UHGV virus genome: UHGV-0166778
Source of the DNA: a virus
Length of the DNA stretch: 24,404 bases
Direction: 5' to 3' (one strand)
Below the pieces are notes generated by a model. The model worked only from the letters and a program-made list of their open reading frames with translations, made no database searches and was not told the origin of the DNA. Below are positions 1-24,246 of this stretch, piece after piece. Made by a program: the position numbers and the translations under genes. How positions within the stretch are numbered: position 1 is the stretch's first letter; every line of letters begins with the position of its first letter.

Positions 1-1103
1 GGTACCTGATTTTCTCCTGTCCCCACATTCCTCTTTGCCGCTTCTCCCAAACCAAGGTATGTGAGAAGACCAGTTACATCCTTTCCACTCAAATTAGTCA
101 GCGTATTGTCCAGCGGTTGTTTACCTGCCAGTGCATTAAGCATTGTCGTGGCAAAGTTCGGGTCATTCCCCAGCGCCGCCGCCAGTTCGTTCAGTGTATC
201 CAGTGCCGCAGGTGCAGAACCCACCATTGCCGCAATCGCCGATTTCACAAATGCCGTGGTGGCAATTTGTGTATTGTTGACCGACTGTGCCGCAGTAGGT
301 GCGGTTGGCGTTCCGGTGAGTGCCGGACTCGACAACGGCGCTTTTAGTGCCAGCGCATTGTTAATGGTGGTACTGAATTTCGGATCATTGTTAATGGCTG
401 CGGCTATTTCTTTCAGCGTGTCCAGCGTGGCTGGCGCACCATTAATAAGAGCCGTCAGAGCCGCCTGAACAAACTCGGTGGTCGCAATCTGCGTGGTGTT
501 ATTCCCTGCTGCTGGCGTTGGCGCTTTGGGTGTCCCGGTAAACGTCGGACTTTCTTTGGGTGCATACTGTGAATGCGGGTCCGGTGCGGCAAGATGTTTT
601 GCCATCTGATCATCCGCGTACACCTTCAGCTCCAGTGCCTTGTCATCCACATACTTGCGGGTTGCCAGCACTACAGCAGGGTCGATTTTCAGGGTGATAT
701 TGTCCGTGCTGCTGGTAATCAGCACCATGCGCACGGTCTGAGTGCGCCCGCTACCTTCAGCCAGTTGCGGCTTATAGCTTTCCGGGCAGTTGCCCACGGC
801 AATCAATGCCCCGGACTCATCAAACAAGCCCACTTCACGTATCCACCAACCGCCCTCGTTTTCAGGGATCACCTGTTCGGCAATAATCTGACTGCTGTTC
901 TGCGGGTCGATATAGAGCATATTCAGCGCAGCCCGGCGTTTCTCATTTACCAGTGCAGTCTGCTTTGAGTCTGGCGTTGGCAATACTCCGCCGCCATCGC
1001 CGACCGCCATATGGGTAATTTTTAGCGGCACACCGAGCGCGGCGGCGCTGGCAAGTTTCGCCGCGCCAATATCCGTCAGCAGGGTATAAAATTTTGTGCT
1101 CAT
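1..1103 (-). CDS. H: Tail fiber protein (P2 gpH-like), partial; 3' end runs off the window
   Basis: Minus-strand frame open from ATG at 1103 to the window edge; translation begins MSTKFYTLLTDIGAAKLASAAALGVPLKITHMAVGDGGG, with repeated TQIATT.FV..A and ALDTL.E.AAA..NDP blocks typical of P2-family tail fibers. Start overlaps the gpI stop (ATGA). Confidence 0.8.
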   Translation of the reverse strand, partial: MSTKFYTLLTDIGAAKLASAAALGVPLKITHMAVGDGGGVLPTPDSKQTALVNEKRRAALNMLYIDPQNSSQIIAEQVIPENEGGWWIREVGLFDESGALIAVGNCPESYKPQLAEGSGRTQTVRMVLITSSTDNITLKIDPAVVLATRKYVDDKALELKVYADDQMAKHLAAPDPHSQYAPKESPTFTGTPKAPTPAAGNNTTQIATTEFVQAALTALINGAPATLDTLKEIAAAINNDPKFSTTINNALALKAPLSSPALTGTPTAPTAAQSVNNTQIATTAFVKSAIAAMVGSAPAALDTLNELAAALGNDPNFATTMLNALAGKQPLDNTLTNLSGKDVTGLLTYLGLGEAAKRNVGTGENQV

Positions 1104-1705
1104 GGATTCACTCTCATTGTGTCAATAACATGGACCGCCCCGCCTTCATGCGCGGTGCCGCCAGAAATAATTGTTTCGTTGATATACGGATAGATCGTGA
1201 TTTCTTCGCCAAGATAGCTGGCGGCCCCCACCCAATGCGGACCGCTGGTCTGCAGATTGATGGACATGCCGATCATGTGACGGCTACATGGTTTGGCATC
1301 GCTTATCAGCCGCTCAAGTTCCAGATAGGTATCTTCAGTGATGCCCTGGTCCTGCACGCCGATATCCAGGCGAAACGTGCCCGGTGTTTCTCCGGTCTGC
1401 CACCACTCAATAATGCGGATCAGGAATCCGAACGGTTCCACCACCCGCCGCACGGCACTGGTAGTTCCTTTATGCTGATGAATATAAAAAGCATCCTTCA
1501 CTACCTGGCGTTTGACGCTTTCTGTCCAGCCCTCGTCCCAGCGATCCACAGAGAACGCCCAGGCGAGATAAGGCAGGAAGCTGACCGGACAGGTAGCCGG
1601 ATTCCACAAGTCACGCAGCGGCACCTGCAGATCAGAAATCCCGCTACAGGTTTGCGCCAGTCGGCGCTCCAGTGAAGTTGAACCCGGTGGCAGCAGACTA
1701 TTCAT
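1100..1705 (-). CDS. I: Baseplate assembly / tail protein (P2 gpI-like)
   Basis: 201-aa ORF (MNSLLPPGSTSLERRLAQ...) in the position between J and H of the P2 late operon; start overlaps the J stop. Confidence 0.8.
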   Translation of the reverse strand: MNSLLPPGSTSLERRLAQTCSGISDLQVPLRDLWNPATCPVSFLPYLAWAFSVDRWDEGWTESVKRQVVKDAFYIHQHKGTTSAVRRVVEPFGFLIRIIEWWQTGETPGTFRLDIGVQDQGITEDTYLELERLISDAKPCSRHMIGMSINLQTSGPHWVGAASYLGEEITIYPYINETIISGGTAHEGGAVHVIDTMRVNP

Positions 1706-2606
1706 CCGTTCCTCCGTTGGTTACGCTCCACTGCGTACATGATGCCGCCTGTGTTTTGTTCAGGACCACATCCGCCAGCGGAGAAGCCAGTTCCACACGT
1801 TGAACACCCTCAACATGCAGAGCAGCAAAGATGGCGCTACGGCGAATATCCCGACCAAGCCTCGTCTGGCTGGCAATGTACTTCTGCAGACTGGCTTTTG
1901 CCGCTGCCATTACCGGCTCTGCTTCCGGTCCCGGATAGAGAAAAATGGTGGCTTCCACGCGATACGGGATGATTTCTGCGCTGCGAACCGTAAGACGGTC
2001 AGCCACCGGGCGGACGTTCTCACTGTTCAGAGCTTTTTCCACCACGTCCAGCAGGTCTTTTTCTGCAGTTCCATCGCCTTCGCGGCTAAGGACAGTCAGC
2101 ACCACCTCTGCAGGTGCCGGGCTGGTTGCACTGGCATCCGCCACCCGACCGTCGGCGCTTCGGGCATGAAATTCATAAGCTGCAGTTGGCCCCGCAACAG
2201 AAAGCCCTTCAAAGGCTGCAGGCACACGCAGGCGTAACGCTTCATCGCTTTCCATCACAGCTGCAACGGGCGGCACAGCATCATTATCAGCAGGCGTCAC
2301 CGTCAGGCGTGTCACGTTGTAGTTGGCAGCGAGCTGGTCAAGATCGCCGCCCATCGCGTAAGCCACCATCACCGCCTGCGCGGCTTCGTTAATGCGCTGG
2401 CGCAGAAGCAACTCACGGTAAGCGTTCTCCTGCAACAATTTAGTGACGGGTTCAGATTCCAGTTCCAGCGTGCGGATCACGACTTCCTGCTCATCTTTCG
2501 GATGAAGCGCCACAAATTCTGCCTTGCGTTCGGCAAGCAGCGTCTCAAAGTCCGGCACATCCACAATCTGCGGTGCAGGCAACTGCGAAAGGTCAATCAC
2601 TGCCAT
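1698..2606 (-). CDS. J: Baseplate assembly protein (P2 gpJ-like)
   Basis: ORF 1698..2645; likely true start is the internal MAVIDLSQLPAPQIVDVPDFETLLAERKA, resembling the gpJ N-terminus; short overlap with the W stop. Confidence 0.85.
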   Translation of the reverse strand: MAVIDLSQLPAPQIVDVPDFETLLAERKAEFVALHPKDEQEVVIRTLELESEPVTKLLQENAYRELLLRQRINEAAQAVMVAYAMGGDLDQLAANYNVTRLTVTPADNDAVPPVAAVMESDEALRLRVPAAFEGLSVAGPTAAYEFHARSADGRVADASATSPAPAEVVLTVLSREGDGTAEKDLLDVVEKALNSENVRPVADRLTVRSAEIIPYRVEATIFLYPGPEAEPVMAAAKASLQKYIASQTRLGRDIRRSAIFAALHVEGVQRVELASPLADVVLNKTQAASCTQWSVTNGGTDE

Positions 2607-2952
2607 TCTCTGCTCCTGTTGATACGGAAAGGGACACAGGCACACCGTTATTCCGCCGCCCGGTCAGCTCCACCACCATAGAACCGTCAAAGTTGCTGTT
2701 GATGGTAATGGAATCCAGCGTCAGCCGTGGCTCCCAGCGACTCAGCGCCACATACACTGCCGACATGACCTGCAGGCGTAATGCCGGATTTTGTGGCTGA
2801 TCTATTAAAACCGACAGGAGGGATCCATATTCCCGGCGGGCAATGCGGCTACCCTGCGGTGTCAGCAGAATGTCCCGCACCGACTGGCGCAGATGATCAA
2901 TATCAGTAATGACTTTGCCGCTGGTATTGTTCATCCCGCTATAAAGCGTCAT
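2593..2952 (-). CDS. W: Baseplate protein (P2 gpW-like, GPW/gp25 family)
   Basis: 119-aa ORF MTLYSGMNNTSGKVITDIDHLRQSVRDILLTPQGSRIARREYGS..., between V and J. Confidence 0.85.
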   Translation of the reverse strand: MTLYSGMNNTSGKVITDIDHLRQSVRDILLTPQGSRIARREYGSLLSVLIDQPQNPALRLQVMSAVYVALSRWEPRLTLDSITINSNFDGSMVVELTGRRNNGVPVSLSVSTGAENGSD

Positions 2953-3527
2953 ACCGGGCCTCCGGTTGTATCGCCGCCTTTCAGGACGCCAGTATGCTGA
3001 TGCGCATCAACCACAATCCCGTTAGAGCTCATCGCTCCGCCGCCCTGGGTAACGCCACCATTGATCACCACTTCGCTGTTAATACGCGTGCGGTCAGCCT
3101 CCAGCACAAACTCACTGGTTTTCAGGGTGATATTGTCAGCGGCCTCAATGACCATTGATTTGATGCCCCTAACATACCAGCGCCCGGTGGCGGGTTCGTA
3201 TTCAAACCAGCCGCCGTCCGGGTATTCCGTCACGTTGCCGTCCTCAGAGCCTGAAGGTGGCGGAAACTGGTTTGAGTAGACCGCAGGCAGGGCAAACGCG
3301 GTTTCCAGATTGCCGCCAAGGCTGAACAGCACAACCTGCTCACCCACAGACGGTTTCCACCAGGTGCGCGATTTGCCCGCGCGCAGTGTCAGCCAGTTAA
3401 TCCAGTTGGTTTCGAGGTCGCCAGTTTTCACCCGACACAGCCAGTTTGCCCTGTCCACTTCGGTGACTACACCTGTGCGGATCAGGTTGGTGATAAGGCG
3501 CATGATTTCGGTTAATTGTGCGTTCAT
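2949..3527 (-). CDS. V: Baseplate spike / tail protein (P2 gpV-like)
   Basis: 192-aa ORF MNAQLTEIMRLITNLIRTGVVTEVD...WWKPSVGEQVVLFSLGG...SSNGIVVDAHQHTG, close to the gpV pattern as recalled. Confidence 0.85.
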   Translation of the reverse strand: MNAQLTEIMRLITNLIRTGVVTEVDRANWLCRVKTGDLETNWINWLTLRAGKSRTWWKPSVGEQVVLFSLGGNLETAFALPAVYSNQFPPPSGSEDGNVTEYPDGGWFEYEPATGRWYVRGIKSMVIEAADNITLKTSEFVLEADRTRINSEVVINGGVTQGGGAMSSNGIVVDAHQHTGVLKGGDTTGGPV

Positions 3528-9169: not shown

Positions 9170-10936
9170 ATGAACACCACACTGACACCCGCAGATCTCG
9201 ATCCCCGTCGGCAGGCCATGCTGCTGTACTTTCAGGGATACCGCGTAGCCCGCATTGCTGAAATGCTGGGCGAGAAAGTTGCAACCGTTCACAGCTGGAA
9301 AAAACGCGACAAGTGGGGTGACTATGGGCCGCTGGATCAGATGCAGCTCACCACCGCCGCACGCTACTGCCAGCTCATCATGAAGGAGCACAAAGAAGGG
9401 AAAGATTTCAAAGAGATTGACCTGCTGGCGCGCCAGTCTGAGCGCCACGCGCGGATCGGCAAGTTTAACAATGGCGGCAACGAAGCCGACTTAAACCCTA
9501 ACGTCGCCAACCGCAACAAAGGCCCGCGTCGTCAGCCGGAAAAGAACGTTTTCACTGATGAACAGATTGAGAAGCTGGAAGAAATCTTCCATTCCTCCAT
9601 GTTCAACTACCAGCGCCACTGGTGGGAAGCCGGAAAAACCAACCGCATCCGCAACCTGCTGAAGTCACGCCAGATCGGCGCGACCTTCTATTTTGCCCGT
9701 GAAGCCCTGATTGACGCCCTGCTTACCGGACGTAACCAGATTTTCCTTTCTGCCAGTAAGGCTCAGGCCCACGTCTTTAAACAATACATCATCGACTTCG
9801 CCAAAGAAGTCGAGGTGGAGCTAAAAGGCGATCCGATGGTGCTTCCTAACGGAGCCACGCTTTACTTCCTCGGCACCAATGCCCGCACGGCCCAGAGTTA
9901 TCACGGCAACCTGTATCTGGATGAATATTTCTGGATACCGAAATTCCAGGAGCTGCGCAAAGTGGCTTCCGGGATGGCTATTCACAAAAAATGGCGACAA
10001 ACCTATTTTTCCACGCCATCCAGCCTGACCCACAGTGCTTATCCGTTCTGGTCCGGTGCGCTGTTCAACCGTGGACGCAACAAAGCTGACAAGGTGGACA
10101 TCGACCTGTCCCACAGCAATCTGGCCCCCGGCCTGCTGTGCGCAGACGGGCAATACCGCCAGATAGTCACCGTGGAAGATGCGGTGCGCGGCGGCTGTAA
10201 CCTGTTCGACCTCGACCAGCTACGCATGGAGTACAGCCCGGACGAATACCAGAACCTGCTGATGTGCGAGTTCGTGGACGATCTCGCGTCCGTGTTCCCG
10301 CTCAGCGAACTGCAGGCGTGCATGGTGGACAGCTGGGAAGTCTGGACCGACTTTCATGCACTGGCCCTGCGCCCGTTTGGCTGGCGCGAAGTGTGGATCG
10401 GTTATGACCCGGCAAAAGGTACGCAGAACGGCGACAGTGCCGGATGCGTGGTGGTGGCTCCGCCAGCCGTGCCGGGTGGTAAGTTCCGCATTCTTGAGCG
10501 TCACCAGTGGCGCGGGATGGACTTCCGCGCCCAGGCTGACGCCATCAAAAAACTCACCGAACAGTACAACGTGACCTATATCGGTATCGACTCAACCGGC
10601 GTTGGTCACGGGGTTTATGAGAACGTGAAAGCATTCTTTCCTGCCGTCCGGGAGTTTGTCTACAACCCCAATGTTAAAAACGCCCTGGTACTCAAGGCCT
10701 ACGACATTATCAGCCACCGCCGTCTGGAGTTTGACGCCGGGCACATCGACATTGCGCAGTCATTCATGGCAATCCGTCGCGCCACCACCGCCAGCGGCAA
10801 CCGCCCGACCTATGAAGCCAGCCGCAGCGAAGAAGCCAGCCACGCCGATCTGGCCTGGGCAACGATGCACGCACTGTTTAACGAACCGCTGCAGGGCGAA
10901 TCCGCCAATACCAGCAATATTGTGGAGATTTTTTGA
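9170..10936 (+). CDS. P: Terminase ATPase (large) subunit (P2 gpP-like)
   Basis: 588-aa ORF MNTTLTPADLDPRRQAMLLYFQGYRVARIAEMLGEKVATVHSWKKRDKW..., P2 gpP-like in length and N-terminus. Confidence 0.9.
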   Translation: MNTTLTPADLDPRRQAMLLYFQGYRVARIAEMLGEKVATVHSWKKRDKWGDYGPLDQMQLTTAARYCQLIMKEHKEGKDFKEIDLLARQSERHARIGKFNNGGNEADLNPNVANRNKGPRRQPEKNVFTDEQIEKLEEIFHSSMFNYQRHWWEAGKTNRIRNLLKSRQIGATFYFAREALIDALLTGRNQIFLSASKAQAHVFKQYIIDFAKEVEVELKGDPMVLPNGATLYFLGTNARTAQSYHGNLYLDEYFWIPKFQELRKVASGMAIHKKWRQTYFSTPSSLTHSAYPFWSGALFNRGRNKADKVDIDLSHSNLAPGLLCADGQYRQIVTVEDAVRGGCNLFDLDQLRMEYSPDEYQNLLMCEFVDDLASVFPLSELQACMVDSWEVWTDFHALALRPFGWREVWIGYDPAKGTQNGDSAGCVVVAPPAVPGGKFRILERHQWRGMDFRAQADAIKKLTEQYNVTYIGIDSTGVGHGVYENVKAFFPAVREFVYNPNVKNALVLKAYDIISHRRLEFDAGHIDIAQSFMAIRRATTASGNRPTYEASRSEEASHADLAWATMHALFNEPLQGESANTSNIVEIF

Positions 10937-11964
10937 TGGGAAAGAGTAAGAAAAACCGCGCTGCGGCGACGAATCAGCTCAAGCATAAAAGCCAGACTTC
11001 AGCCGAAGCATTCAGCTTTGGCGATCCCGTTCCTGTTCTGGACCGCCGTGAACTGCTGGACTATGTGGAATGCGTACAGATGGACCGCTGGTATGAGCCG
11101 CCCGTCAGCTTTGACGGACTGGCACGAACCTTCCGCGCTGCCGTGCATCACAGCTCACCGATTGCAGTAAAATGCAACATTCTGACCAGTACCTACATCC
11201 CTCACCCGCAGCTCAGCCAGCAGGCTTTTTCACGTTTTGTGCAGGACTATCTGGTATTTGGTAACGCCTACCTGGAGAAACGCACGAACCGCTTCGGTGA
11301 AGTTATCGCCCTTGAGCCTGCTCTGGCAAAATACACCCGACGCGGGTTAGACCTGGATACCTACTGGTTTGTGCAATACGGTATGACAACCCAGCCGTAT
11401 CAGTTCACGAAAGGCAGCATTTTTCATCTGATGGAACCGGACATTAACCAGGAGATCTACGGCCTGCCCGGCTATCTTTCTGCCATTCCGTCCGCCCTGC
11501 TCAATGAGTCCGCCACGCTGTTCCGCCGCAAGTATTACATTAACGGTAGTCATGCAGGCTTCATCATGTACATGACCGATGCTGCGCAGAACCAGGAGGA
11601 CGTGAACAACCTCCGCAATGCAATGAAAAGTGCCAAAGGTCCGGGTAACTTCCGCAACCTGTTTATGTACTCGCCTAACGGCAAAAAGGACGGCCTTCAG
11701 ATCATCCCTTTGTCAGAAGTTGCGGCGAAGGATGAGTTTCTAAATATCAAGAACGTGAGCCGGGATGACATGATGGCAGCACATCGCGTTCCGCCACAGA
11801 TGATGGGGATTATGCCGAATAATGTTGGGGGGTTTGGGGATGTGGAGAAGGCTAGTAAAGTATTTGTTCGTAATGAGTTATTACCGTTGCAAAAAAGATT
11901 ACAGGAAATAAACATATGGCTAGATGAGGAAATAGTAACATTCGATAGTTATCAGCTTACTTGA
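10933..11964 (+). CDS. Q: Portal protein (P2 gpQ-like)
   Basis: 343-aa ORF overlapping the P stop (ATGA). Confidence 0.9.
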   Translation: MMGKSKKNRAAATNQLKHKSQTSAEAFSFGDPVPVLDRRELLDYVECVQMDRWYEPPVSFDGLARTFRAAVHHSSPIAVKCNILTSTYIPHPQLSQQAFSRFVQDYLVFGNAYLEKRTNRFGEVIALEPALAKYTRRGLDLDTYWFVQYGMTTQPYQFTKGSIFHLMEPDINQEIYGLPGYLSAIPSALLNESATLFRRKYYINGSHAGFIMYMTDAAQNQEDVNNLRNAMKSAKGPGNFRNLFMYSPNGKKDGLQIIPLSEVAAKDEFLNIKNVSRDDMMAAHRVPPQMMGIMPNNVGGFGDVEKASKVFVRNELLPLQKRLQEINIWLDEEIVTFDSYQLT

Positions 11965-11970
11965 AAAAAC

Positions 11971-11998
11971 GGAGTCAGATATTCTGACTCCTTATTTC
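11971..11998. terminator. Bidirectional rho-independent terminator between convergent Q and the TM-TIR gene
   Basis: Stem ggagtcag / ctgactcc with a 5-nt loop, flanked by an A-run on one side and a T-rich tract on the other. Confidence 0.5.
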
Positions 11999-12599
11999 AA
12001 CCAAGAATGGACTTCAATGACAAATTGAGCTTATCAATTAATTTTTCATCCTCATAGTTTACAGACTTGATGTTTTTGAGCATCGCAGGCAATTCAGCAT
12101 CACCAATTATCACAGGAATTATAGGAACATAGTTTTCATCTTTTACCGTAGCTTTACGGAGAAAGCCCTCTACCTCCTTTCTTATATATGACTCCATATC
12201 TTCATTAGACAGAAGCAATATAGCCGCAGCGCTATTGTCTATAGCCTGATTAATTTGCTTTTCAATAATCTGCCCGGGCAATATGTTATTTTCATCAAAC
12301 CATACATCAAAACCTAACTCATTAAGCTTACAAGTTATTTGACGGGCCTTATCTTTTTCTTGTACGGGATACATTAGAAATATTTGCTTTCCTTTTTTAA
12401 CGGCCTTTAGTCTTCTTTCCCTTAATTTCATTAACACAATCAAACTCAGGCCAGAATAGGCAAAAGATAATCCAATAACGGAGATGATAATCTCATCATT
12501 AACTCCTTGAAATAAATATGGGAGCCGTGGAATAAGAGCCATAAGAAACCCAACAACAGCCAATGCAATTGAAATAATATAAAGAGTATTTTTTTTCAT
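11997..12599 (-). CDS. Membrane-anchored TIR-like domain protein (two N-terminal TM helices plus C-terminal TIR-like fold)
   Basis: 200 aa. N-terminal hydrophobic helices (LYIISIALAVVGFLMALIP; IIISVIGLSFAYSGLSLIVLM), then IFLMYPVQEKDKARQITCKLNELGFDVWFDENNILPGQ...AIDNSAAAILLLSNEDMESYIRKEVEGF, which follows the TIR beta-A / alpha-A / beta-C pattern. AT-rich, unlike the flanking phage core. Confidence 0.6.
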   Translation of the reverse strand: MKKNTLYIISIALAVVGFLMALIPRLPYLFQGVNDEIIISVIGLSFAYSGLSLIVLMKLRERRLKAVKKGKQIFLMYPVQEKDKARQITCKLNELGFDVWFDENNILPGQIIEKQINQAIDNSAAAILLLSNEDMESYIRKEVEGFLRKATVKDENYVPIIPVIIGDAELPAMLKNIKSVNYEDEKLIDKLNLSLKSILG

Positions 12600-13016
12600 T
12601 TACACACCCTTAATCCACAAAACAAAGGAAGCAAAAAATAATATGCCGACTAAATTACACCCAATACATAAAACCCAAATTTGACCTTTTGGATTTCCTG
12701 TTCGCCCTTCCCAATCTTGATGAAAAGACATGATCCCCAGTAATACAAAAAGAGAGAAGGCAAGAAAGCTAGTAGTTCCAATGTACTGATTAACCACTTG
12801 GTTAACCGTGGTTACTGTTTGAACAGTTTTAGTCAAATCATATAAATTCAACAATGATGCACCAATTGTCGATAATATCAACTCATTCCCAAAGTAAAAA
12901 TCACTCTTTTGCCAACCAGAGGATCTGGCAAGTTTTTTTACAAAAGCCCCACATAGAATCATCAACAATGGAAAAATTAAAGCAACAACGTATTTATTAC
13001 CAATGACATCAATCAT
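12600..13016 (-). CDS. Small polytopic membrane protein, function unknown; first gene of an operon with the TM-TIR gene
   Basis: 138 aa with about four hydrophobic helices; its stop codon directly abuts the ATG of the TM-TIR gene; AT-rich. Confidence 0.55.
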   Translation of the reverse strand: MIDVIGNKYVVALIFPLLMILCGAFVKKLARSSGWQKSDFYFGNELILSTIGASLLNLYDLTKTVQTVTTVNQVVNQYIGTTSFLAFSLFVLLGIMSFHQDWEGRTGNPKGQIWVLCIGCNLVGILFFASFVLWIKGV

Positions 13017-13206: not shown

Positions 13207-13225
13207 CTCGTATCCCCGCCACGCC
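13207..13225 (-). other. Candidate cos (cohesive end) core
   Basis: Reverse complement reads GGCGTGGCGGGGATACGAG; the first 13 nt match the P2/186 cos overhang as I recall it (GGCG[A/T]GGCGGGGAAAGCA). An isolated GC-rich block in an AT-rich intergenic region, at the map position expected for cos. Confidence 0.3.
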
Positions 13226-13342: not shown

Positions 13343-14185
13343 TCATGCACGATCATTTGACTCAGCATCTGCTGCACGCTTGCTGCGCGAAGATGCACTT
13401 TTACTACCAATCTTTCGACAGTTCTTTCTATCCCTGGCTTCATTTTCTTTAAATTTGTTATATGTCTCAGTATCAAAAAACGAAATTGTTTCAACCTCAT
13501 CTTTTGGTATGAGCACACGGAAATCTTCGATATTAAGCCGAGACATTCCACTTATCACACCACTATCAAGATAATGTTGGTGATAGTTAGTCGTGATACT
13601 AATCGTTAGATCATCTTTATCCCGATATCCGCTTAACATCGGGAGAAGTTCAAGGTGTTCTGAAAGCCCGTTTTCTAACGCCGGACAAGTAACAAGACCA
13701 ACATAGATTTTGCGAGACGACAGAGTTGCTATGATCGGAAACTGTCTTGCGGACGCTTCCATGAGTAATGATTCGAAAGCGTTATTACCCACAGCTTTAG
13801 CTAAGGCATCCCAGCGACGATCTCCACGTGATGTGCGTAACTTATTTCCAAAACCTGAAATCGCAGCGAGGACAATTGAAATCATAACCCATGCTATCTG
13901 TTTGATTTCATTTATTCTTTGAAGTTTGTCTTTCGATGAAGACAACATGCCGTTAAAACTGTCAGGTGTTAGATTCAAGGCATTAGCCAGCCAACGAAAC
14001 CCTCCGCTGACGTTCAAAATAAAGGTGAAAAAACCGCCAAGGAGAAAAAAAACGATACCCCAGGCAGCCACAAAAAAATAAGCGTCCCAGCCGTTGGAAC
14101 GCTTATATCGGTATCTTGTTGAAAGTGATAGGTTTACATAAATAAAACCACTAACCAAAATCACTGCTAAAAGTAATGTTGCCAT
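13343..14185 (-). CDS. Membrane-anchored protein of unknown function (N-terminal TM helices plus about 170-aa soluble domain)
   Basis: 280 aa with hydrophobic segments (LLLAVILVSGFIYV; YFFVAAWGIVFFLLGGFFTFIL; IAWVMISIVLAAISGF) and a charged Ser/Arg/Lys-rich C-terminus; AT-rich; start overlaps the stop of the upstream small gene (TAATG). Confidence 0.5.
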   Translation of the reverse strand: MATLLLAVILVSGFIYVNLSLSTRYRYKRSNGWDAYFFVAAWGIVFFLLGGFFTFILNVSGGFRWLANALNLTPDSFNGMLSSSKDKLQRINEIKQIAWVMISIVLAAISGFGNKLRTSRGDRRWDALAKAVGNNAFESLLMEASARQFPIIATLSSRKIYVGLVTCPALENGLSEHLELLPMLSGYRDKDDLTISITTNYHQHYLDSGVISGMSRLNIEDFRVLIPKDEVETISFFDTETYNKFKENEARDRKNCRKIGSKSASSRSKRAADAESNDRA

Positions 14186-14400
14186 TATCTGGTTCTATTA
14201 GTTTTCTCTTTTACAGTGCTCGTTTTGATGCCTTCAAGCTTATCCATCTGTGCCTTGATGGCATCCATTGCTCTTTTGTTAGACAAGTCTACGGACACAA
14301 AACCATCTTTACTAAGATTGAGTTTGTCCTGGTTCTCTTTAAGAACCCTTGCCAGACGTTCAACTGGGTTACCCAGGCTAAATGCGGCGATGCTTGACAT
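14185..14400 (-). CDS. Small hydrophilic protein of unknown function, translationally coupled to the downstream membrane protein
   Basis: 71-aa ORF MSSIAAFSLGNPVERLARVLKENQDKLNLSKDGF...; AT-rich cargo region. Confidence 0.45.
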   Translation of the reverse strand: MSSIAAFSLGNPVERLARVLKENQDKLNLSKDGFVSVDLSNKRAMDAIKAQMDKLEGIKTSTVKEKTNRTR

Positions 14401-14670: not shown

Positions 14671-14904
14671 TTAATGCAGCCAGCTGTCGTCTTCCCACAC
14701 CTTCTGCATAATTTTCATTACTTGTTTCCTTTCTTCGTCCAGTTGCAGTCCGGTCAGTTCCACACCGTTAGAGCTACCTTTACGGATACGAATTACCGTT
14801 TTGGGATACAGGGGGCGCAGATTGCGGTAAAGCTCGGATTCAAAGGCGTCCAGGGTAGACTGGCTAATCTTCTGCTCTTTATCGATCATTATTTCAATGC
14901 GCAT
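14671..14904 (-). CDS. dinI: DinI-family protein
   Basis: Internal start MRIEIMIDKEQKISQSTLDAFESELYRNLRPLYPKTVIRIRKGSSNGVELTGL...VWEDDSWLH fits the DinI length and pattern (MRIE... N-terminus, acidic W-containing C-terminus); GAGGTG ribosome-binding site upstream. Confidence 0.75.
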   Translation of the reverse strand: MRIEIMIDKEQKISQSTLDAFESELYRNLRPLYPKTVIRIRKGSSNGVELTGLQLDEERKQVMKIMQKVWEDDSWLH

Positions 14905-14914
14905 AAAAGTCACC

Positions 14915-15103
14915 TCAACTGATGACATCCATTGAGCGGTTGTATTCGTGGGTTCTGATTTTTGCCATAAGTTCATCTGTCAGTTCAGAAACCCACTGCA
15001 AAGCCAGCCCCTTCTCTTCATCACTACACTCACTAGCCGCTACAAGCTTAAGAAAAAAATCAATGCGCTGGAGCTTCAAAGACTCCAAAAAATAGTCCTG
15101 CAT
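14915..15103 (-). CDS. Putative Tum-like antirepressor (small protein transcribed from the LexA-controlled promoter)
   Basis: 62-aa ORF with a GGAGGA ribosome-binding site, directly downstream of a LexA-box promoter and upstream of dinI; the position matches tum of phage 186. Confidence 0.4.
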   Translation of the reverse strand: MQDYFLESLKLQRIDFFLKLVAASECSDEEKGLALQWVSELTDELMAKIRTHEYNRSMDVIS

Positions 15104-15255: not shown

Positions 15256-17670
15256 TTAATACAGGTTTCGCCACTTATCATCTTCCTGCAAACGCTGGTT
15301 CCGATAGAAGATACGCAGGCCTGCTCCTGACGGAATACTGCCGCCGCGAAGCAGTAAATCGACCTCTTTCTCGCTGCCATCAAATCCCCTGGACTTCAGT
15401 TCATACACGAGCTGCTGTCGCTGATGATCTGTAATTCGCTGTTTGTAGTCTTTACGCCGTTTCGGTTTCACCAGGCGTAACCTTGCTGCCAGTTCCCGGC
15501 GCTCTTTTTTGCTCATACTGTGCAGGTAATCGTGCAACTCCTTGTCATCCATGCGGGTGATATCCGTTCTGGTATCTCCATCAGCTGATTTGTCTTTCCC
15601 TTGTTGGTACAAATTTTCAGCAAGGGGACAGTTATTGCCACGAGTCCAAGGGGCGCAAGCGCCCTGGTCGGCTGCCGCCTCCTGAACGTCAACGGCCTTA
15701 CGAACCATTTTCCACTTCACTGCATGAGTGCAGATCTTGCCCTCTGCAATGGGTGACCAGATGCCATAAATACGAATACCGTGATCGCCATAGGCGGTCG
15801 GCTCTTCGTTGATTTCATAAGCGGTTCTGATGAGGTGATATTTGCGGGGAACCAGTACGCCGCCCTGCTTCATGATGTAGGAGGCAAAACAACCAGCATC
15901 AGCAGCAGCCAGGATGGCATCAAGGCGCGGGTTATCCAGTACCGGCGCACCTGCTTTTTTGTCACCCTGTTGCCTTGCCGCCTGACCAGCCAGCAATCGC
16001 AGTTCACGGTAAGCCTGACGCCCCGGAATGCCAAAGAAGCGGAATTGCTGAACACGATGCAGAGACGCCCAGGCATTAACGTATTCAGCGTTATCACGCA
16101 GGGATTTACCCGTTTCCTTACTGATCTCGCCAGCCAGACCACGCCCGTCAATATTCTTACTGATATATTTCGCAATGTAGCTTGTCGGCGTTCCTTTGCG
16201 CGGGTTTATCAGCTCAGACTTAAAGCGTGGCCCCGTGTTATTGCCCAGCTCCTCGCGGTCTTCACGGATGGCAAACTTACGCAACAATGCAGTAATGGCG
16301 CGGCGGTCTTTTTTGCGCATGAAACACAACAGGTGCCAGTGAACTGTGCCGTCATGATGCGGCTCAGCCACCCGCACGCCATACCAGCGCAACCCGGCTT
16401 TGTGCATAGCCTTACGAAATGCAGCAAACATGCCGACCAGATAATCGCTGCTTTGTCTTACTGTCGCGTTGGTCCAGGTCGGGTTTGGCCTGCCGTTATT
16501 TAGCGTGGAATGGAAACGTGACGGACAGGTGATGGTGTAGAAAACGGCGCAGTCACCACGCATTTCCGCGATAAGCTCCAGGCCTTTAACACAGGCCATC
16601 ATCTCGTTGCGGCGATGCGCCGGGTTGCTGCTGCTGGCGTTTACCACATCCTCCATGTTCAGCGTGTCGCCGTCTTCGTTCACCAGTTCATGAGAACGGA
16701 AAAACTCCAGCGACTTACGGCGCTGCTCACGTTTATGCATCACGGCTTCATAGCTGACATAGGGAGATGCTTTTTTGCTGACCAGGCAGACAGCACGCAA
16801 CTGCTCTTCCCGCCATTCGCAACGCATCTTCCATAATTTCCGATACCACCAGTCGGCGCACAGCATACGCGCCAGCGAACCCGGAATGAGTTCATAAGGC
16901 ACAGGTTTGCGGCGGTTTCTTTTCCGGCGGAGTTGCTCAAACGCTGGCGGTATGACATCCAGTCGCAGGGTTTCTGCAGCCACCTTTTCCCATGTCTTGC
17001 GGATTTCTTCTGGCTTAACATCATCGGAGGCGTACAAATCACCACAAGCGGCATCAAGACACATGCTCATATGCGCAGCGACAAGGGTAGACAGGCGTTT
17101 CACCTGATCCTGACTCATTTCAGGCAGGATCATCAGACCGTCCAGCCCTTCATGGCTTGCCATAAAACGAAAAGATGCAGATAGCTGGCTGTCGCGTACA
17201 TGCTCCAGTCGTTCCAGACATGGCTTAATCGTCTCACGCAAATAGCGGGAATAAGCCTTTGGCCTGCCCAGGCTGCTGAAATATTCAATACGTTGCATCA
17301 GCGGCTTGCTGATATGGGAAGGCTGGGCGTTGACGTCAGTCAGAATGACCATGTCTGGATTAAAACGCTGCTGCTCATGCGCCATCTTTGCCCGGCTAAT
17401 GAGCTTATCCTGCTCCATTTCGCGTTGGACAGGATCACGGGATTCATTAAAGAAATAACGCTCCCAGACCTGATCACTCAGTGCCTCGCGGCGCAGTTGT
17501 TCCTGCTCGTTATCAGTAGCGTACAGAGTGATCAGGTTTGAAAGCGCAGAAACCGGCGCAACTTCCGCCGGGTCCAGATAAGGGTTAATGGCCTTTTTCG
17601 GGCTGTTCCATGAGAACGATGCGGCAGCTTCGTTAAAGCTGCAGCAGTTGTTCATATCGGCATGACTCAT
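15256..17670 (-). CDS. A: Replication initiation endonuclease (P2/186 gpA-like)
   Basis: 804-aa ORF in the conserved early-operon position; size and position match gpA. Confidence 0.85.
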
Positions 17671-18524
17671 GCACGTACTCCGTACACGGCAGAACTATCC
17701 ACGCCACGCGAATAATCAAATCCCACCCAGCAGCGCGGCCCGGAAACAGCAATGATTTCTGTTGCTGATTTACCCTCGCCAGCTGCCACACCGATGCTGC
17801 GTTTTGCCTTGATGTAGTGGTGAGTAAAATTGCGATACAGCGAACGGATCAGGGATGTGTCACTGTTAGAAACAATGACCGGATGTCCTTCTGATGACCG
17901 ATGTTCAAGAACAGATGCCAGGTGATACTGGTCATCTTCAGTGAAGCCGTCAGTGTGATAGCCGGAAAACGTACCGTCATACGGCGGATCGCAATACACC
18001 ACATCCCCCGCCTTCAACATCGCCAGCGTTTCATCAAAGCTGGCGCAGATAAACGTTGCTCGCTGGGCCTTTTCTGCAAATGCGCGAATTTCTTTTTCAG
18101 GGAAATACGGATTTTTATAATTACCGTAGGGAATGTTGAAATGCCCGCTCTTGTTATAGCGACATAAACCACGGTAACCGTGACGATTGAGATACAGGAA
18201 ATATACCGCTTTCATGAAATCAGTAATTTCAGTTGAGTAATTAAACTCCTGCCTTATGTTGTAATAAGCCACCTCCCTGTTTGCGATCTCAAATAAAACT
18301 CTGGCGCGAGATATAAACGATTCACAATCAGCGGCAACCTTTTTATAGAGGTTGATTAAATCAGGATTAATATCCGCAACCAGATAGCTGGGATAATCCG
18401 TCTCCATCATCACAGCACAGGAACCCGCGAAAGGTTCAACCAGTCGCGGGCCAGCAGGAAGATGTTTTTTCAGTTCGGACATTATGGCTGTTTTATTTCC
18501 CGCCCATTTCAGGATGGTGCTCAT
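17667..18524 (-). CDS. dam: DNA adenine (N6) methyltransferase, Dam / D12 class
   Basis: Contains [12 protein letters not shown] (AdoMet motif) and DPPY (catalytic motif). Start taken at MSTILKW, overlapping the upstream stop, rather than at the longer ORF start at 18584. Confidence 0.85.
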
Positions 18525-18748
18525 ACAGCACCTCCGTTGTAATGTTTGCCTTTCAGCTCTGCGATTTCCTGACAGGTAATGCAAAGCTGCACACCCGGAA
18601 TGGCACGGCGGCGTGCTGGCGGAATTGGCGCTTCACACTCAATGCAAAGCACGCGGGACACGCCCGGCGTTTTGGCACGGGCAGCACGGATATGGCGTTG
18701 GCGTTCTTCTTCAACGCGCTGCTGTACGAGATCCATTGCATCAGCCAT
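18521..18748 (-). CDS. TraR/DksA-family C4 zinc-finger protein
   Basis: 75 aa with CIEC-x17-CITC in the C-terminal half. Confidence 0.7.
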   Translation of the reverse strand: MADAMDLVQQRVEEERQRHIRAARAKTPGVSRVLCIECEAPIPPARRRAIPGVQLCITCQEIAELKGKHYNGGAV

Positions 18749-22690: not shown

Positions 22691-23476
22691 ATGCTGTCTG
22701 AAATAGAAATCAATGATGAAATTCAGCGAGGCAACATTTTTGATCCATTAACGGTATTAAATGGAACATTTAAAGTTCAATCTGCAAGCATTGATCTCTC
22801 TGTAAAAACAATACATATACCAGACTGTCAAGACAATAAAAAAACACGTAACAACCATATCCTGATGCCAGGGGAAACTGTAATATTAGAGTTAAATGAA
22901 AAATTCCAACTTGCAAAAAATTTAGCTGGTGTAATATTCCCAAGAAACACACTATCAAAAAATGGAATTATCATGACGAATCCAGGGCATATTGACCCTG
23001 GATATAATGGCATAATTTCAATATATCTTGTAAATATGTCAAAAGAACCATTCTCATTGACACAAAATTCTGCAGTAGCCCGAATGTTATTATTTAAAAC
23101 AATAATACCGACTAAAGGTTACCAAGGAAAAATCGTAAATAAATTGGATGATGATCAACTTTCTAGAATGGGAAAGGATTTTGCAGGACTTGATAAACGA
23201 CTTCCGAAAGAAATCAATAAAATCATTGCGAAAAAAACTGGCTTTATAATTGCGATAGCAGCCTTAATGCTAACGTTGATAACCCTAGCAATTCCTTTCT
23301 TATTTCAAATAGTATCCAGTAATGTCAGTAGTACAAAAGATCTTGAATTAACAATAAAAGTTCAACAAAATGAAATAAATAGCCTAAAAAGCACCGTTGA
23401 ATTACTAAAAAATGCTAAATCAAACGAACCAAAGGTTGATGCTAAAGTAAGCACCCCAAAAGCTATACGGGAGTAA
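22691..23476 (+). CDS. dCTP deaminase (Dcd)/dUTPase-fold protein with a C-terminal TM helix and coiled-coil tail
   Basis: 261 aa. The N-terminal ~185 aa show Dcd-family landmarks (LNGTFKVQSASIDLSV; PGETVILELNEKFQL; GIIMTNPGHIDPGYNGIISIYLVN); followed by a TM segment (FIIAIAALMLTLITLAIPFLF) and a Lys/Glu-rich coiled coil. AT-rich; ThyX start codon 2 nt after its stop. Confidence 0.7.
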   Translation: MLSEIEINDEIQRGNIFDPLTVLNGTFKVQSASIDLSVKTIHIPDCQDNKKTRNNHILMPGETVILELNEKFQLAKNLAGVIFPRNTLSKNGIIMTNPGHIDPGYNGIISIYLVNMSKEPFSLTQNSAVARMLLFKTIIPTKGYQGKIVNKLDDDQLSRMGKDFAGLDKRLPKEINKIIAKKTGFIIAIAALMLTLITLAIPFLFQIVSSNVSSTKDLELTIKVQQNEINSLKSTVELLKNAKSNEPKVDAKVSTPKAIRE

Positions 23477-23478
23477 AA

Positions 23479-24246
23479 ATGATAAAAATCTCTGATTTAT
23501 CAGTAAAATGCATATCACACCCTTCATTTGAAAGTAATGTTTTTGATGATTTTTTAAACACATCATCATTGCAATGGGTTCGCAAAGGGCAGGCGACCGA
23601 AGCTGAGCTTCTGGTAGAGGCCGCTGGCAGGCTATGTTATATGTCTTTTGGAGAGGATAAGCAGTCTCCACGGACTACAAGTCAATATATCAACAATTTA
23701 ATTATTCAAGGGCATGAAAGTGTCTTAGAACATTTGAACTGGACCTTTTTAATTACTGGGGTATCTCGTGCATTTACACACCAGCTAGTTCGGCATAGAG
23801 CTGGTTTTTCATATAGCCAGTTATCCCAACAGTATCATGATGAATCCGATGCTGAATTCGTAGCCCCTATAGAAGTAAAAAATGACCCAGAATTGTTTAA
23901 GTCATGGTGCCAACATATTGAAAGTAGTCTGGATTTTTATAAGCAATCCTTGAAAAAAATCCGTGAAAACCAATCGTATGAGAACAAAAAAGAAAAAATG
24001 CGGGCCCTAAGAAGCGCTTCTCGCTCTATATTGCCTAATGCAACCGAGACAAAAATAATCGTCACAGCAAATGCTCGCGCAATTCGACACTTCTTCGAAA
24101 TGAGAGGAGCAATACAGGGTGACTATGAAATGAGAACAGTTTCAGAAAAACTTTACGATATTGTAACTCAAGATGCCCCTGCCTTGTTCCAAGATTTCGA
24201 AAAAGTCAATGGAGGAACGGCGCACGTTAAGATAATAAAACAATAA
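23479..24246 (+). CDS. thyX: Flavin-dependent thymidylate synthase (ThyX family)
   Basis: 255 aa with the ThyX signature region GHESVLEHLNWTFLITGVSRAFTHQLVRHRAGFSYSQLSQQY (RHR-x7-8-S motif) and C-terminal ETKIIVTANARAIRHFFEMR; strong GGGAG ribosome-binding site. Confidence 0.85.
   Translation: MIKISDLSVKCISHPSFESNVFDDFLNTSSLQWVRKGQATEAELLVEAAGRLCYMSFGEDKQSPRTTSQYINNLIIQGHESVLEHLNWTFLITGVSRAFTHQLVRHRAGFSYSQLSQQYHDESDAEFVAPIEVKNDPELFKSWCQHIESSLDFYKQSLKKIRENQSYENKKEKMRALRSASRSILPNATETKIIVTANARAIRHFFEMRGAIQGDYEMRTVSEKLYDIVTQDAPALFQDFEKVNGGTAHVKIIKQ

Follow-up and report, generated by a model that had tools for sequence, protein, structure and literature searches.

A rare two-gene cassette of a four-helix membrane protein and a membrane-anchored TIR protein beside cos in a P2/186-type prophage, a candidate anti-phage module

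The window analysed here, the whole 24,404-nucleotide stretch of UHGV virus genome UHGV-0166778, is a P2/186-type prophage with tail and baseplate genes at its left end, followed by the capsid module, and an early region that contains gpA, a Dam-type methylase, DinI, the CI repressor and integrase. Between the portal gene Q and a cos-like sequence lies a cassette of two genes, which we refer to as A and B, encoding a small membrane protein and a membrane-anchored TIR protein, and we consider here whether these two proteins form an anti-phage system. An initial annotation of the window had described a minus-strand, AT-rich pair between the portal terminator and cos, and the open reading frames (ORFs) are exactly as it described them, with a GC content of 0.35 compared with 0.54 for terminase plus portal (0.53–0.54 for the phage backbone). 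The elements of the locus are as follows.

12600–13016, minus strand: gene A, an ORF of 138 aa
11997–12599, minus strand: gene B, an ORF of 200 aa
13017–13206, minus strand: upstream region of 190 bp, AT-rich in sequence (GC 0.34), separating the cos core from the gene A start
13207–13225, minus strand: cos core of the 186 type, the 19-mer GGCGTGGCGGGGATACGAG, a unique exact match
11971–11991, both strands: bidirectional intrinsic-terminator hairpin from a terminator scan, with a 9-bp stem and T-runs on both strands

The TAA stop of gene A directly abuts the ATG start of gene B. A putative ribosome-binding site (RBS), GAAGGA, lies 5' of the gene A ATG, and the upstream region presumably provides the cassette with a promoter as well as an RBS of its own. 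At the other end, the terminator is common to gene B and the convergent portal gene and separates their stops. The cos core is the boundary of the cargo slot and lies outside the A/B system; about 70 bp around it are conserved in approximately 1,250 complete E. coli genomes, and the same cos sequence adjoins cargo cloned from the P2-like hotspot (PMC9122126, Table S2). The neighbours of the cassette are the portal gene, backbone genes, DinI and gpA, in agreement with the earlier statement that it has no cyclase, SIR2 or soluble sensor partner.

The AlphaFold2 (AF2) model of protein A has a pLDDT of 93.9 and is a four-helix bundle with helices at residues 8–31, 43–64, 71–103 and 109–136, as had been proposed for the 138-aa product, and protein A is on this model predicted to be a four-helix inner-membrane protein. 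Its conserved cytoplasmic motifs are KKLxRxxxWxxxDFYxGxE in loop 1 and HQDWE in loop 3 (codons 12708–12722). No Pfam, NCBIfam or PADLOC model matches protein A, and in PHROGs it corresponds to phrog_25392, a small family whose function is unannotated. An exhaustive hidden Markov model (HMM) search of 1.84 billion representatives recovered 218 relatives at E≤1e-3 and 96 at E≤1e-10; these are representatives at 50% identity, and the count is therefore one of at least 218 clusters. Nearly all of the relatives are 125–160 aa long and match over their full length. Their alignment contains four hydrophobic segments, with KKLxRGxxWxxxDFYLGxE and HQDWE in predicted cytoplasmic loops. An Asn and a Gly are conserved in helix 4, a VKG lies at the C-terminus, and the periplasmic loop is variable; none of 60 aligned members falls in any Pfam family. 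The window protein has all of the corresponding features: four helices, both motifs, the C-terminal VKG, and a coupled downstream gene for a hairpin of two transmembrane (TM) helices. The A family is thus an undescribed family of small membrane proteins, absent from Pfam and NCBIfam.

Protein B is annotated by PGAP as a TIR domain-containing protein (WP_000742490) and corresponds to phrog_24215 in PHROGs, where its function is unannotated. Its parts and the residues discussed below are these.

12384–12599, minus strand: B residues 1–72, a 2-TM hairpin and the polybasic juxtamembrane segment KLRERRLKAVKKGKQ, from hydropathy and charge distribution
12000–12383, minus strand: B residues 73–200, the TIR domain, from alignment with AbTir and PdTIR
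12174–12176, minus strand: codon of the putative catalytic Glu, E142, which shares an alignment column with E208 of AbTir and the catalytic Glu of PdTIR
12294–12296, minus strand: codon of D102, the equivalent of AbTir D167, invariant
12273–12278, minus strand: P108-G109 of the BB-loop

The N-terminal part consists of a short basic N-terminus, TM1 (residues 6–24), a 12-residue loop, TM2 (37–58) and the polybasic segment (59–72), which is invariant across the window clade. The predicted topology is N-in/C-in, which would place the TIR domain in the cytoplasm, where NAD+ is. Pfam TIR_2 (PF13676) matches residues 73–185 with 63.4 bits against a gathering cut-off of 28, and PF01582 matches with 28.9 bits against a cut-off of 21.3; together with the two N-terminal helices this bears out the earlier description of a 200-aa TM-anchored TIR protein. 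A B-family profile matches the solved TIR structures TIR-STING, PdTIR (3h16) and AbTir (7uwg and 8g83), and the TIR assignment is robust at the level of sequence. B shares with the NADase TIRs AbTir, PdTIR and TcpC, its best structure and profile matches, the FxxY beta-A strand, GFxVWFD, the PG of the BB-loop, the alpha-C Glu, and D102 at the position of D167. Mutagenesis has shown that S140, R151, D167, W204 and R215 of AbTir are needed for NADase activity (PMC11374754). Of the basic residues among these, R215 corresponds to K149 of B, which is K or R across lineages, and R151 to R86, replaced by Gly in one lineage. The KKE motif that includes E142 is invariant in four clade lineages whose B proteins are 53–100% identical.

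Five diverged lineages, found in Enterobacter, in Klebsiella and in three metagenomic lineages, carry the pair with its two gene lengths and its abutting junction unchanged. Relative to the window, B and A are 79% and 89% identical in an Enterobacter prophage remnant, 64% and 82% in Klebsiella P2-like prophages, 53–55% and 59% in two short metagenomic contigs, and 40% and 57% in a metagenomic P2-like phage fragment (L060). The dN/dS ratios are 0.04–0.18 for gene A and 0.07–0.21 for gene B, with synonymous sites near saturation; this and the recurrence with constant lengths and junction indicate that both ORFs are protein-coding and under purifying selection. Between the same phages the portal is 86–92% identical, as against 57–82% for A and 40–64% for B, so that divergence of the cassette, most markedly of B, far outpaces that of the phage backbone. 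Fast divergence of B with dN/dS below 1 is typical of defence genes.

Partners of A-family genes were sampled by genomic context in nine lineages, and in all nine the next downstream gene encodes a protein that starts with a 2-TM hairpin, at a distance of -4 to +1 nt, or +19 nt in one case. TIR_2 follows the hairpin in three of them, the window clade and two further lineages (L011 and L012), with partners of 200–216 aa. The conserved unit is A plus the hairpin, and the TIR domain is a C-terminal addition in a subset. That A belongs to a broad family with mostly TIR-less hairpin partners was not visible to the initial annotation, and it alters the way in which the system is to be understood. 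It is this TIR-bearing subset that is found in phage hotspots or adjoining toxin genes, including that of a ParE toxin; we also considered one protein (P0124) as a hairpin fused to a ParE/RelE-like toxin, for which there was no Pfam support. A and B occur together, with stop and start abutting or overlapping, in the five TM-TIR lineages of the window clade and in L011 and L012. Approximately 70 loci encode further relatives of the TIR domain of B, and no A-family gene is present at any of them. A search of genome contigs with the B sequence alone gave no match, and genome and metagenome searches with the B alignment returned mostly generic TIR proteins, with an A-family neighbour only in L060 and in one locus identical to the window (L059).

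The interval between gpA and gpQ around cos is a published defence hotspot of P2-like phages, which holds old and tin in P2, retrons and restriction enzymes, and from which several novel systems have been validated (Rousset et al. 2022, PMC9122126); it also holds non-defence cargo, such as partition systems and a cytolethal distending toxin (PMC9122126). The cassette lies between gpA and gpQ beside cos, in a slot that varies among similar prophages. In sibling E. coli prophages, whose portals are 94% identical and whose backbone is the same (the genes for a 280-aa and a 71-aa protein, DinI and gpA), the interval between Q and cos holds other cargo, either a DUF262 protein of 593 aa (L021, 1644–3425) or a hypothetical protein of 422 aa (L022, 2127–3395). 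These agree with the initial annotation, which took the pair to be variable cargo, and they indicate that 186-type phages have a separate cargo slot on the Q-proximal side of cos. In the Klebsiella phages the pair is the sole cargo between gpA and Q, and in L060 the same hotspot contains a gene for a 555-aa AIPR (abortive infection) protein (224–1891) immediately upstream of the diverged pair. The location strongly suggests a defence role.

The cassette is rare, being present in 3 of 5,426 complete E. coli genomes, with all three copies 100% identical, even at blastn sensitivity, and it is thus not a conserved core gene of these phages. It is absent from 50,697 phage records and present in one IMG/VR contig, and it does not appear among the entries listed in the accessible part of Table S5 of Rousset et al. 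(PMC9122126). Two of its carriers are degraded prophages. The one in E. coli O157:H16 98-3133 (L001, NZ_CP051001) has a truncated portal and has lost its capsid and terminase genes, with a cassette 100% identical to that of the window; in Enterobacter sp. BNK-8 (L002) the prophage is reduced to early genes plus ogr, adjoining KAP-NTPase and HNH genes, and the pair is kept. Maintenance of the pair in two degraded prophages suggests that it is retained by the host independently of the phage.

We compared the pair with known systems that combine TIR domains and membrane proteins. The nearest in setting is the AC1 system Rst_2TM_1TM_TIR ('2TM + 1TM + TIR') of a P2-like phage, which protects against lambda, LF82_P8 and P2 (PMC9122126). 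Like the cassette, it is cargo of the gpA-gpQ/cos hotspot and a compact operon of a TIR protein and small TM proteins; unlike it, AC1 has three genes, and its TIR protein is soluble, 315 aa long, with an N-terminal TIR domain and a long helical C-terminus, whereas in B the TIR domain is fused to a hairpin. Neither A nor B has significant similarity to the three AC1 proteins by BLASTP or hhalign. Thoeris systems with membrane effectors have also been described, namely type II (TM-Macro), type V (ThsF/DUF2270, with 3 TM helices) and type VII (ThsH/SLATT) (bioRxiv 10.64898/2025.12.03.692087). These resemble the cassette in being two-gene operons of a short TIR protein and a small multi-TM protein, and as plausible abortive-infection systems, but ThsB TIR proteins are soluble signal generators, and A homologues mostly have TIR-less partners. 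Protein A matches no Macro, DUF2270 or other Thoeris effector family. A connection to SLATT-associated families, raised at the outset, was not borne out, as neither A nor the B hairpin has a SLATT Pfam match at E≤0.1. The A and B sequences were not found in the accessible parts of the supplements of the Thoeris survey. In light of AC1 and the TM-only-effector Thoeris systems, the claim of the initial annotation that the architecture is without precedent was overstated.

Other systems are more distant. PADLOC gives only generic TIR-region matches for B (SAVED_TIR, 40 bits; PDC-S66, 37 bits; ThsB, 14–20 bits), and the NCBIfam TIR matches are all sub-threshold, with the Thoeris model at 25.5 bits against a 220-bit cut-off. 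The SAVED_TIR match is confined to the TIR portion of its profile (positions 15–99 of 404), and B differs from the TIR effectors of CBASS (TIR-SAVED) and Pycsar in having no SAVED or cNMP-binding domain and no cyclase nearby. Lambda RexAB is also a prophage two-gene exclusion module with one four-TM partner of about 140 aa, but hhalign of the A family against a RexB-like protein gives a probability of 0.1%, and RexA is soluble and not a TIR protein. We also considered A as a homologue of the AC1 TM proteins or of a RexB-like protein and rejected both, as there is no sequence or profile similarity. A survey of TIR proteins in E. coli published in 2024 (PMC11350192) defined 64 clusters, tested 32 of them, and mentions one validated system with a TM element; judging from the sampling fractions reported there, we put it at less than one chance in ten that the cassette is already among the systems validated. 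The general kind of system, a TIR protein with small membrane proteins, is therefore already known, and the proteins described here are not homologous to the known ones. What is new is an undescribed 4-TM family whose obligate partner, the hairpin protein, has captured a TIR domain in a subset of lineages.

Our preferred interpretation, to which we assign a probability of roughly 0.4, is that the cassette may be a prophage-carried, two-gene, membrane-embedded TIR module of the abortive-infection type that acts against phages. The four TM helices of A and the 2-TM hairpin of B would be made in fixed proportion from the coupled genes and packed as a heteromeric inner-membrane complex, and the tight gene coupling, the obligate co-occurrence and the small-residue-rich helices are consistent with a physical association of the two proteins. 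In the resting state, the polybasic tail of B, placed against the acidic cytoplasmic loops of A (DFYxGxE and HQDWE), might hold the TIR domains apart and inactive. An infection cue would be sensed at the membrane module, through it, or by the rapidly evolving surface of the TIR domain itself, whereupon B molecules would cluster. Assembly of TIR domains with one another could then form a composite active site around E142 and D102 and, by homology, lead to NAD+ hydrolysis at the membrane. The infected cell would stop supporting phage growth, and the lysogen population, together with the resident P2-like prophage, would be protected from competitors.

Several observations weigh against this interpretation. 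In six of the nine sampled A-family lineages (L013, L015, L016, L018, L020 and L023) the partner is a TIR-less hairpin of 59–115 aa with a short, usually basic tail. These six pairs come from diverse metagenomes and metagenome-assembled genomes (MAGs) and lie in ordinary chromosomal, non-phage neighbourhoods, and some TIR-less pairs adjoin lipid, cell-wall or tRNA-modification genes; the occurrence of six TIR-less pairs in non-defence neighbourhoods implies that the membrane module has a function of its own. A scan of this strand of the upstream region for the sigma-70 consensus found no site matching at 9 or more of 12 positions. The AF2 model of B, built from a 5-sequence alignment, is poor (pLDDT 53.9), with an alternating order of strands and helices in which beta-C is modelled as a helix, and its best Foldseek matches, to SEFIR and TIR domains, are weak (E of about 2e-3). 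The TIR assignment of B consequently rests on sequence profiles. B is moreover membrane-anchored, unlike the AbTir-type TIRs, and is only about 23% identical to them. At the position of AbTir S140 it has Met76, which is not conserved, and at that of W204, in the WxxxE motif, it has Y138, where other lineages have Y, H or F. Two distant TM-TIR relatives lack the catalytic residue: B of L060, which lies in the same phage slot, has Ala at this column and a Glu two residues later, and B of L012 has Ile. The catalytic Glu to which attention had been drawn is present as E142 and invariant in the clade, but the S140 equivalent is Met and the Glu is missing from L060 and L012, from which it follows that NADase chemistry is not universally required for the role of the pair. 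With Met76, Y138 and a variable R86 set alongside the conserved E142 and D102, NADase competence of B is plausible but not assured.

The main rival explanation reverses the roles of the two proteins, in a manner like Thoeris or Rex, such that the TIR domain of B senses a phage protein and self-assembles, perhaps with production of a signal derived from ADPR, while the bundle of A and the hairpin kills the cell by a pore or ion leak, with NAD+ depletion secondary or absent. That A plus hairpin exists without a TIR domain in most sampled lineages would fit an intrinsic membrane activity to which the TIR domain was added, and loss of the Glu in L060 and L012 with the pair kept, in the case of L060 in the same phage slot, would fit a non-catalytic assembly role. 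Operons of a TIR protein with a small TM-only effector have been validated in AC1 (PMC9122126) and in Thoeris types V (ThsF) and VII (SLATT) (bioRxiv 10.64898/2025.12.03.692087), the conserved basic residues K27, K28 and R31 in the cytoplasmic loop of A could bind a nucleotide-derived ligand, and B, here the putative sensor, is the faster-evolving partner. However, the invariance of KKE142 and D102 in the clade argues that catalysis matters, a TIR domain tethered beside its effector has no obvious need of a diffusible signal, A is not homologous to any Thoeris, CBASS or Rex effector, and the TIR-less pairs in housekeeping contexts argue against an intrinsic suicide pore. We regard this arrangement as somewhat unlikely.

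Two further explanations were considered. The pair could be a non-defence lysogenic-conversion gene set, or moron, in which A and the hairpin form a membrane homeostasis or stress complex of benefit to the lysogen or to the cycle of the phage itself, acting for example in envelope stress tolerance or lysis timing, and the TIR domain is a regulatory or interaction domain. The prevalence of TIR-less pairs in ordinary chromosomal neighbourhoods, the non-defence cargo of the hotspot (PMC9122126) and a Glu that is not universal among TM-TIR relatives are all compatible with this, but bacterial TIR_2 domains with the catalytic Glu overwhelmingly belong to defence or NADase modules, the TIR-bearing versions are those found in phage hotspots and next to an AIPR gene and a ParE toxin gene, and extreme rarity with fast divergence relative to the backbone is ill-suited to a housekeeping benefit; we consider it quite improbable. 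Alternatively, the A-B complex could act in superinfection exclusion (Sie), blocking genome entry or an early membrane step without killing the host, with the TIR domain as an oligomerisation scaffold only. Small inner-membrane proteins are common among prophage Sie proteins, both A and B are integral membrane proteins from a temperate phage, and some relatives lack the catalytic Glu. Known Sie proteins, however, are without TIR domains, a cytoplasmic TIR with a conserved Glu and Asp in the clade would be left unexplained, and there is no sizeable periplasmic domain, only the 12-residue hairpin loop of B and the short variable loop of A. A role of this kind appears very improbable.

The genes that flank the cassette in the window are the following.

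9170–10936, plus strand: terminase gene P
10933–11964, plus strand: portal gene Q, with its stop at 11964
15256–17670, minus strand: replication protein gene gpA

Between cos and DinI, on the minus strand at 13343–14400, are genes for a protein of 280 aa (phrog_3630), whose N-terminal half is rich in TM segments, and, overlapping it, a 71-aa protein (phrog_9843), neither of which has a Pfam or PADLOC match. These were considered as further components of the cassette and rejected, as they are backbone in cassette-less sibling prophages and absent from the cassette-bearing Klebsiella phages. The DinI-like gene (14671–14976, minus strand) and a D12-class Dam methyltransferase gene in the early region (PF02086, 258 bits; 17667–18584, minus strand) are ordinary accessory genes of 186-type phages. 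Directly 3' of the integrase gene, at 22691–24246 on the plus strand, are two genes encoding a 261-aa protein of the dCTP-deaminase/dUTPase fold (PF22769, 56 bits) and a 255-aa ThyX thymidylate synthase (PF02511, 165 bits). PADLOC matches neither of them, and at this int-proximal end the pair may be a nucleotide-metabolism moron or a defence of the nucleotide-depletion type.

A more far-reaching proposal, which we consider unlikely, is that the 4-TM protein and the 2-TM hairpin constitute a widespread module for sensing the state of the membrane that has been fused to TIR in P2-like phages. The cassette would then be a bacterial counterpart of Toll-like receptors, in which perturbation of the envelope by a phage, through genome entry, depolarisation or holin insertion, would make the TIR domains cluster and cleave NAD+ without any soluble sensor or second messenger. 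B resembles animal Toll-like receptors in topology only, in that a membrane span is fused directly to a cytoplasmic TIR domain with induced-proximity activity, and it differs from them in lacking an ectodomain, in being a two-pass hairpin rather than single-pass, in having a separate 4-TM partner and in being probably catalytic. The resemblance is one of analogy and not homology of architecture. If this proposal were true, envelope perturbation would be converted directly into TIR activity.

Should the cassette give no protection, it would be one more moron in a well-known hotspot. If it does protect, it would represent a 1-kb, E. coli-native two-gene TIR system in which the TIR domain is physically wired into a membrane complex, offering a simple model for the control of TIR assembly at the membrane and the first functional handle on the A family as a whole. 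Protection would further establish the Q-proximal side of cos, in addition to the old/tin side, as a cargo slot in 186-type phages.

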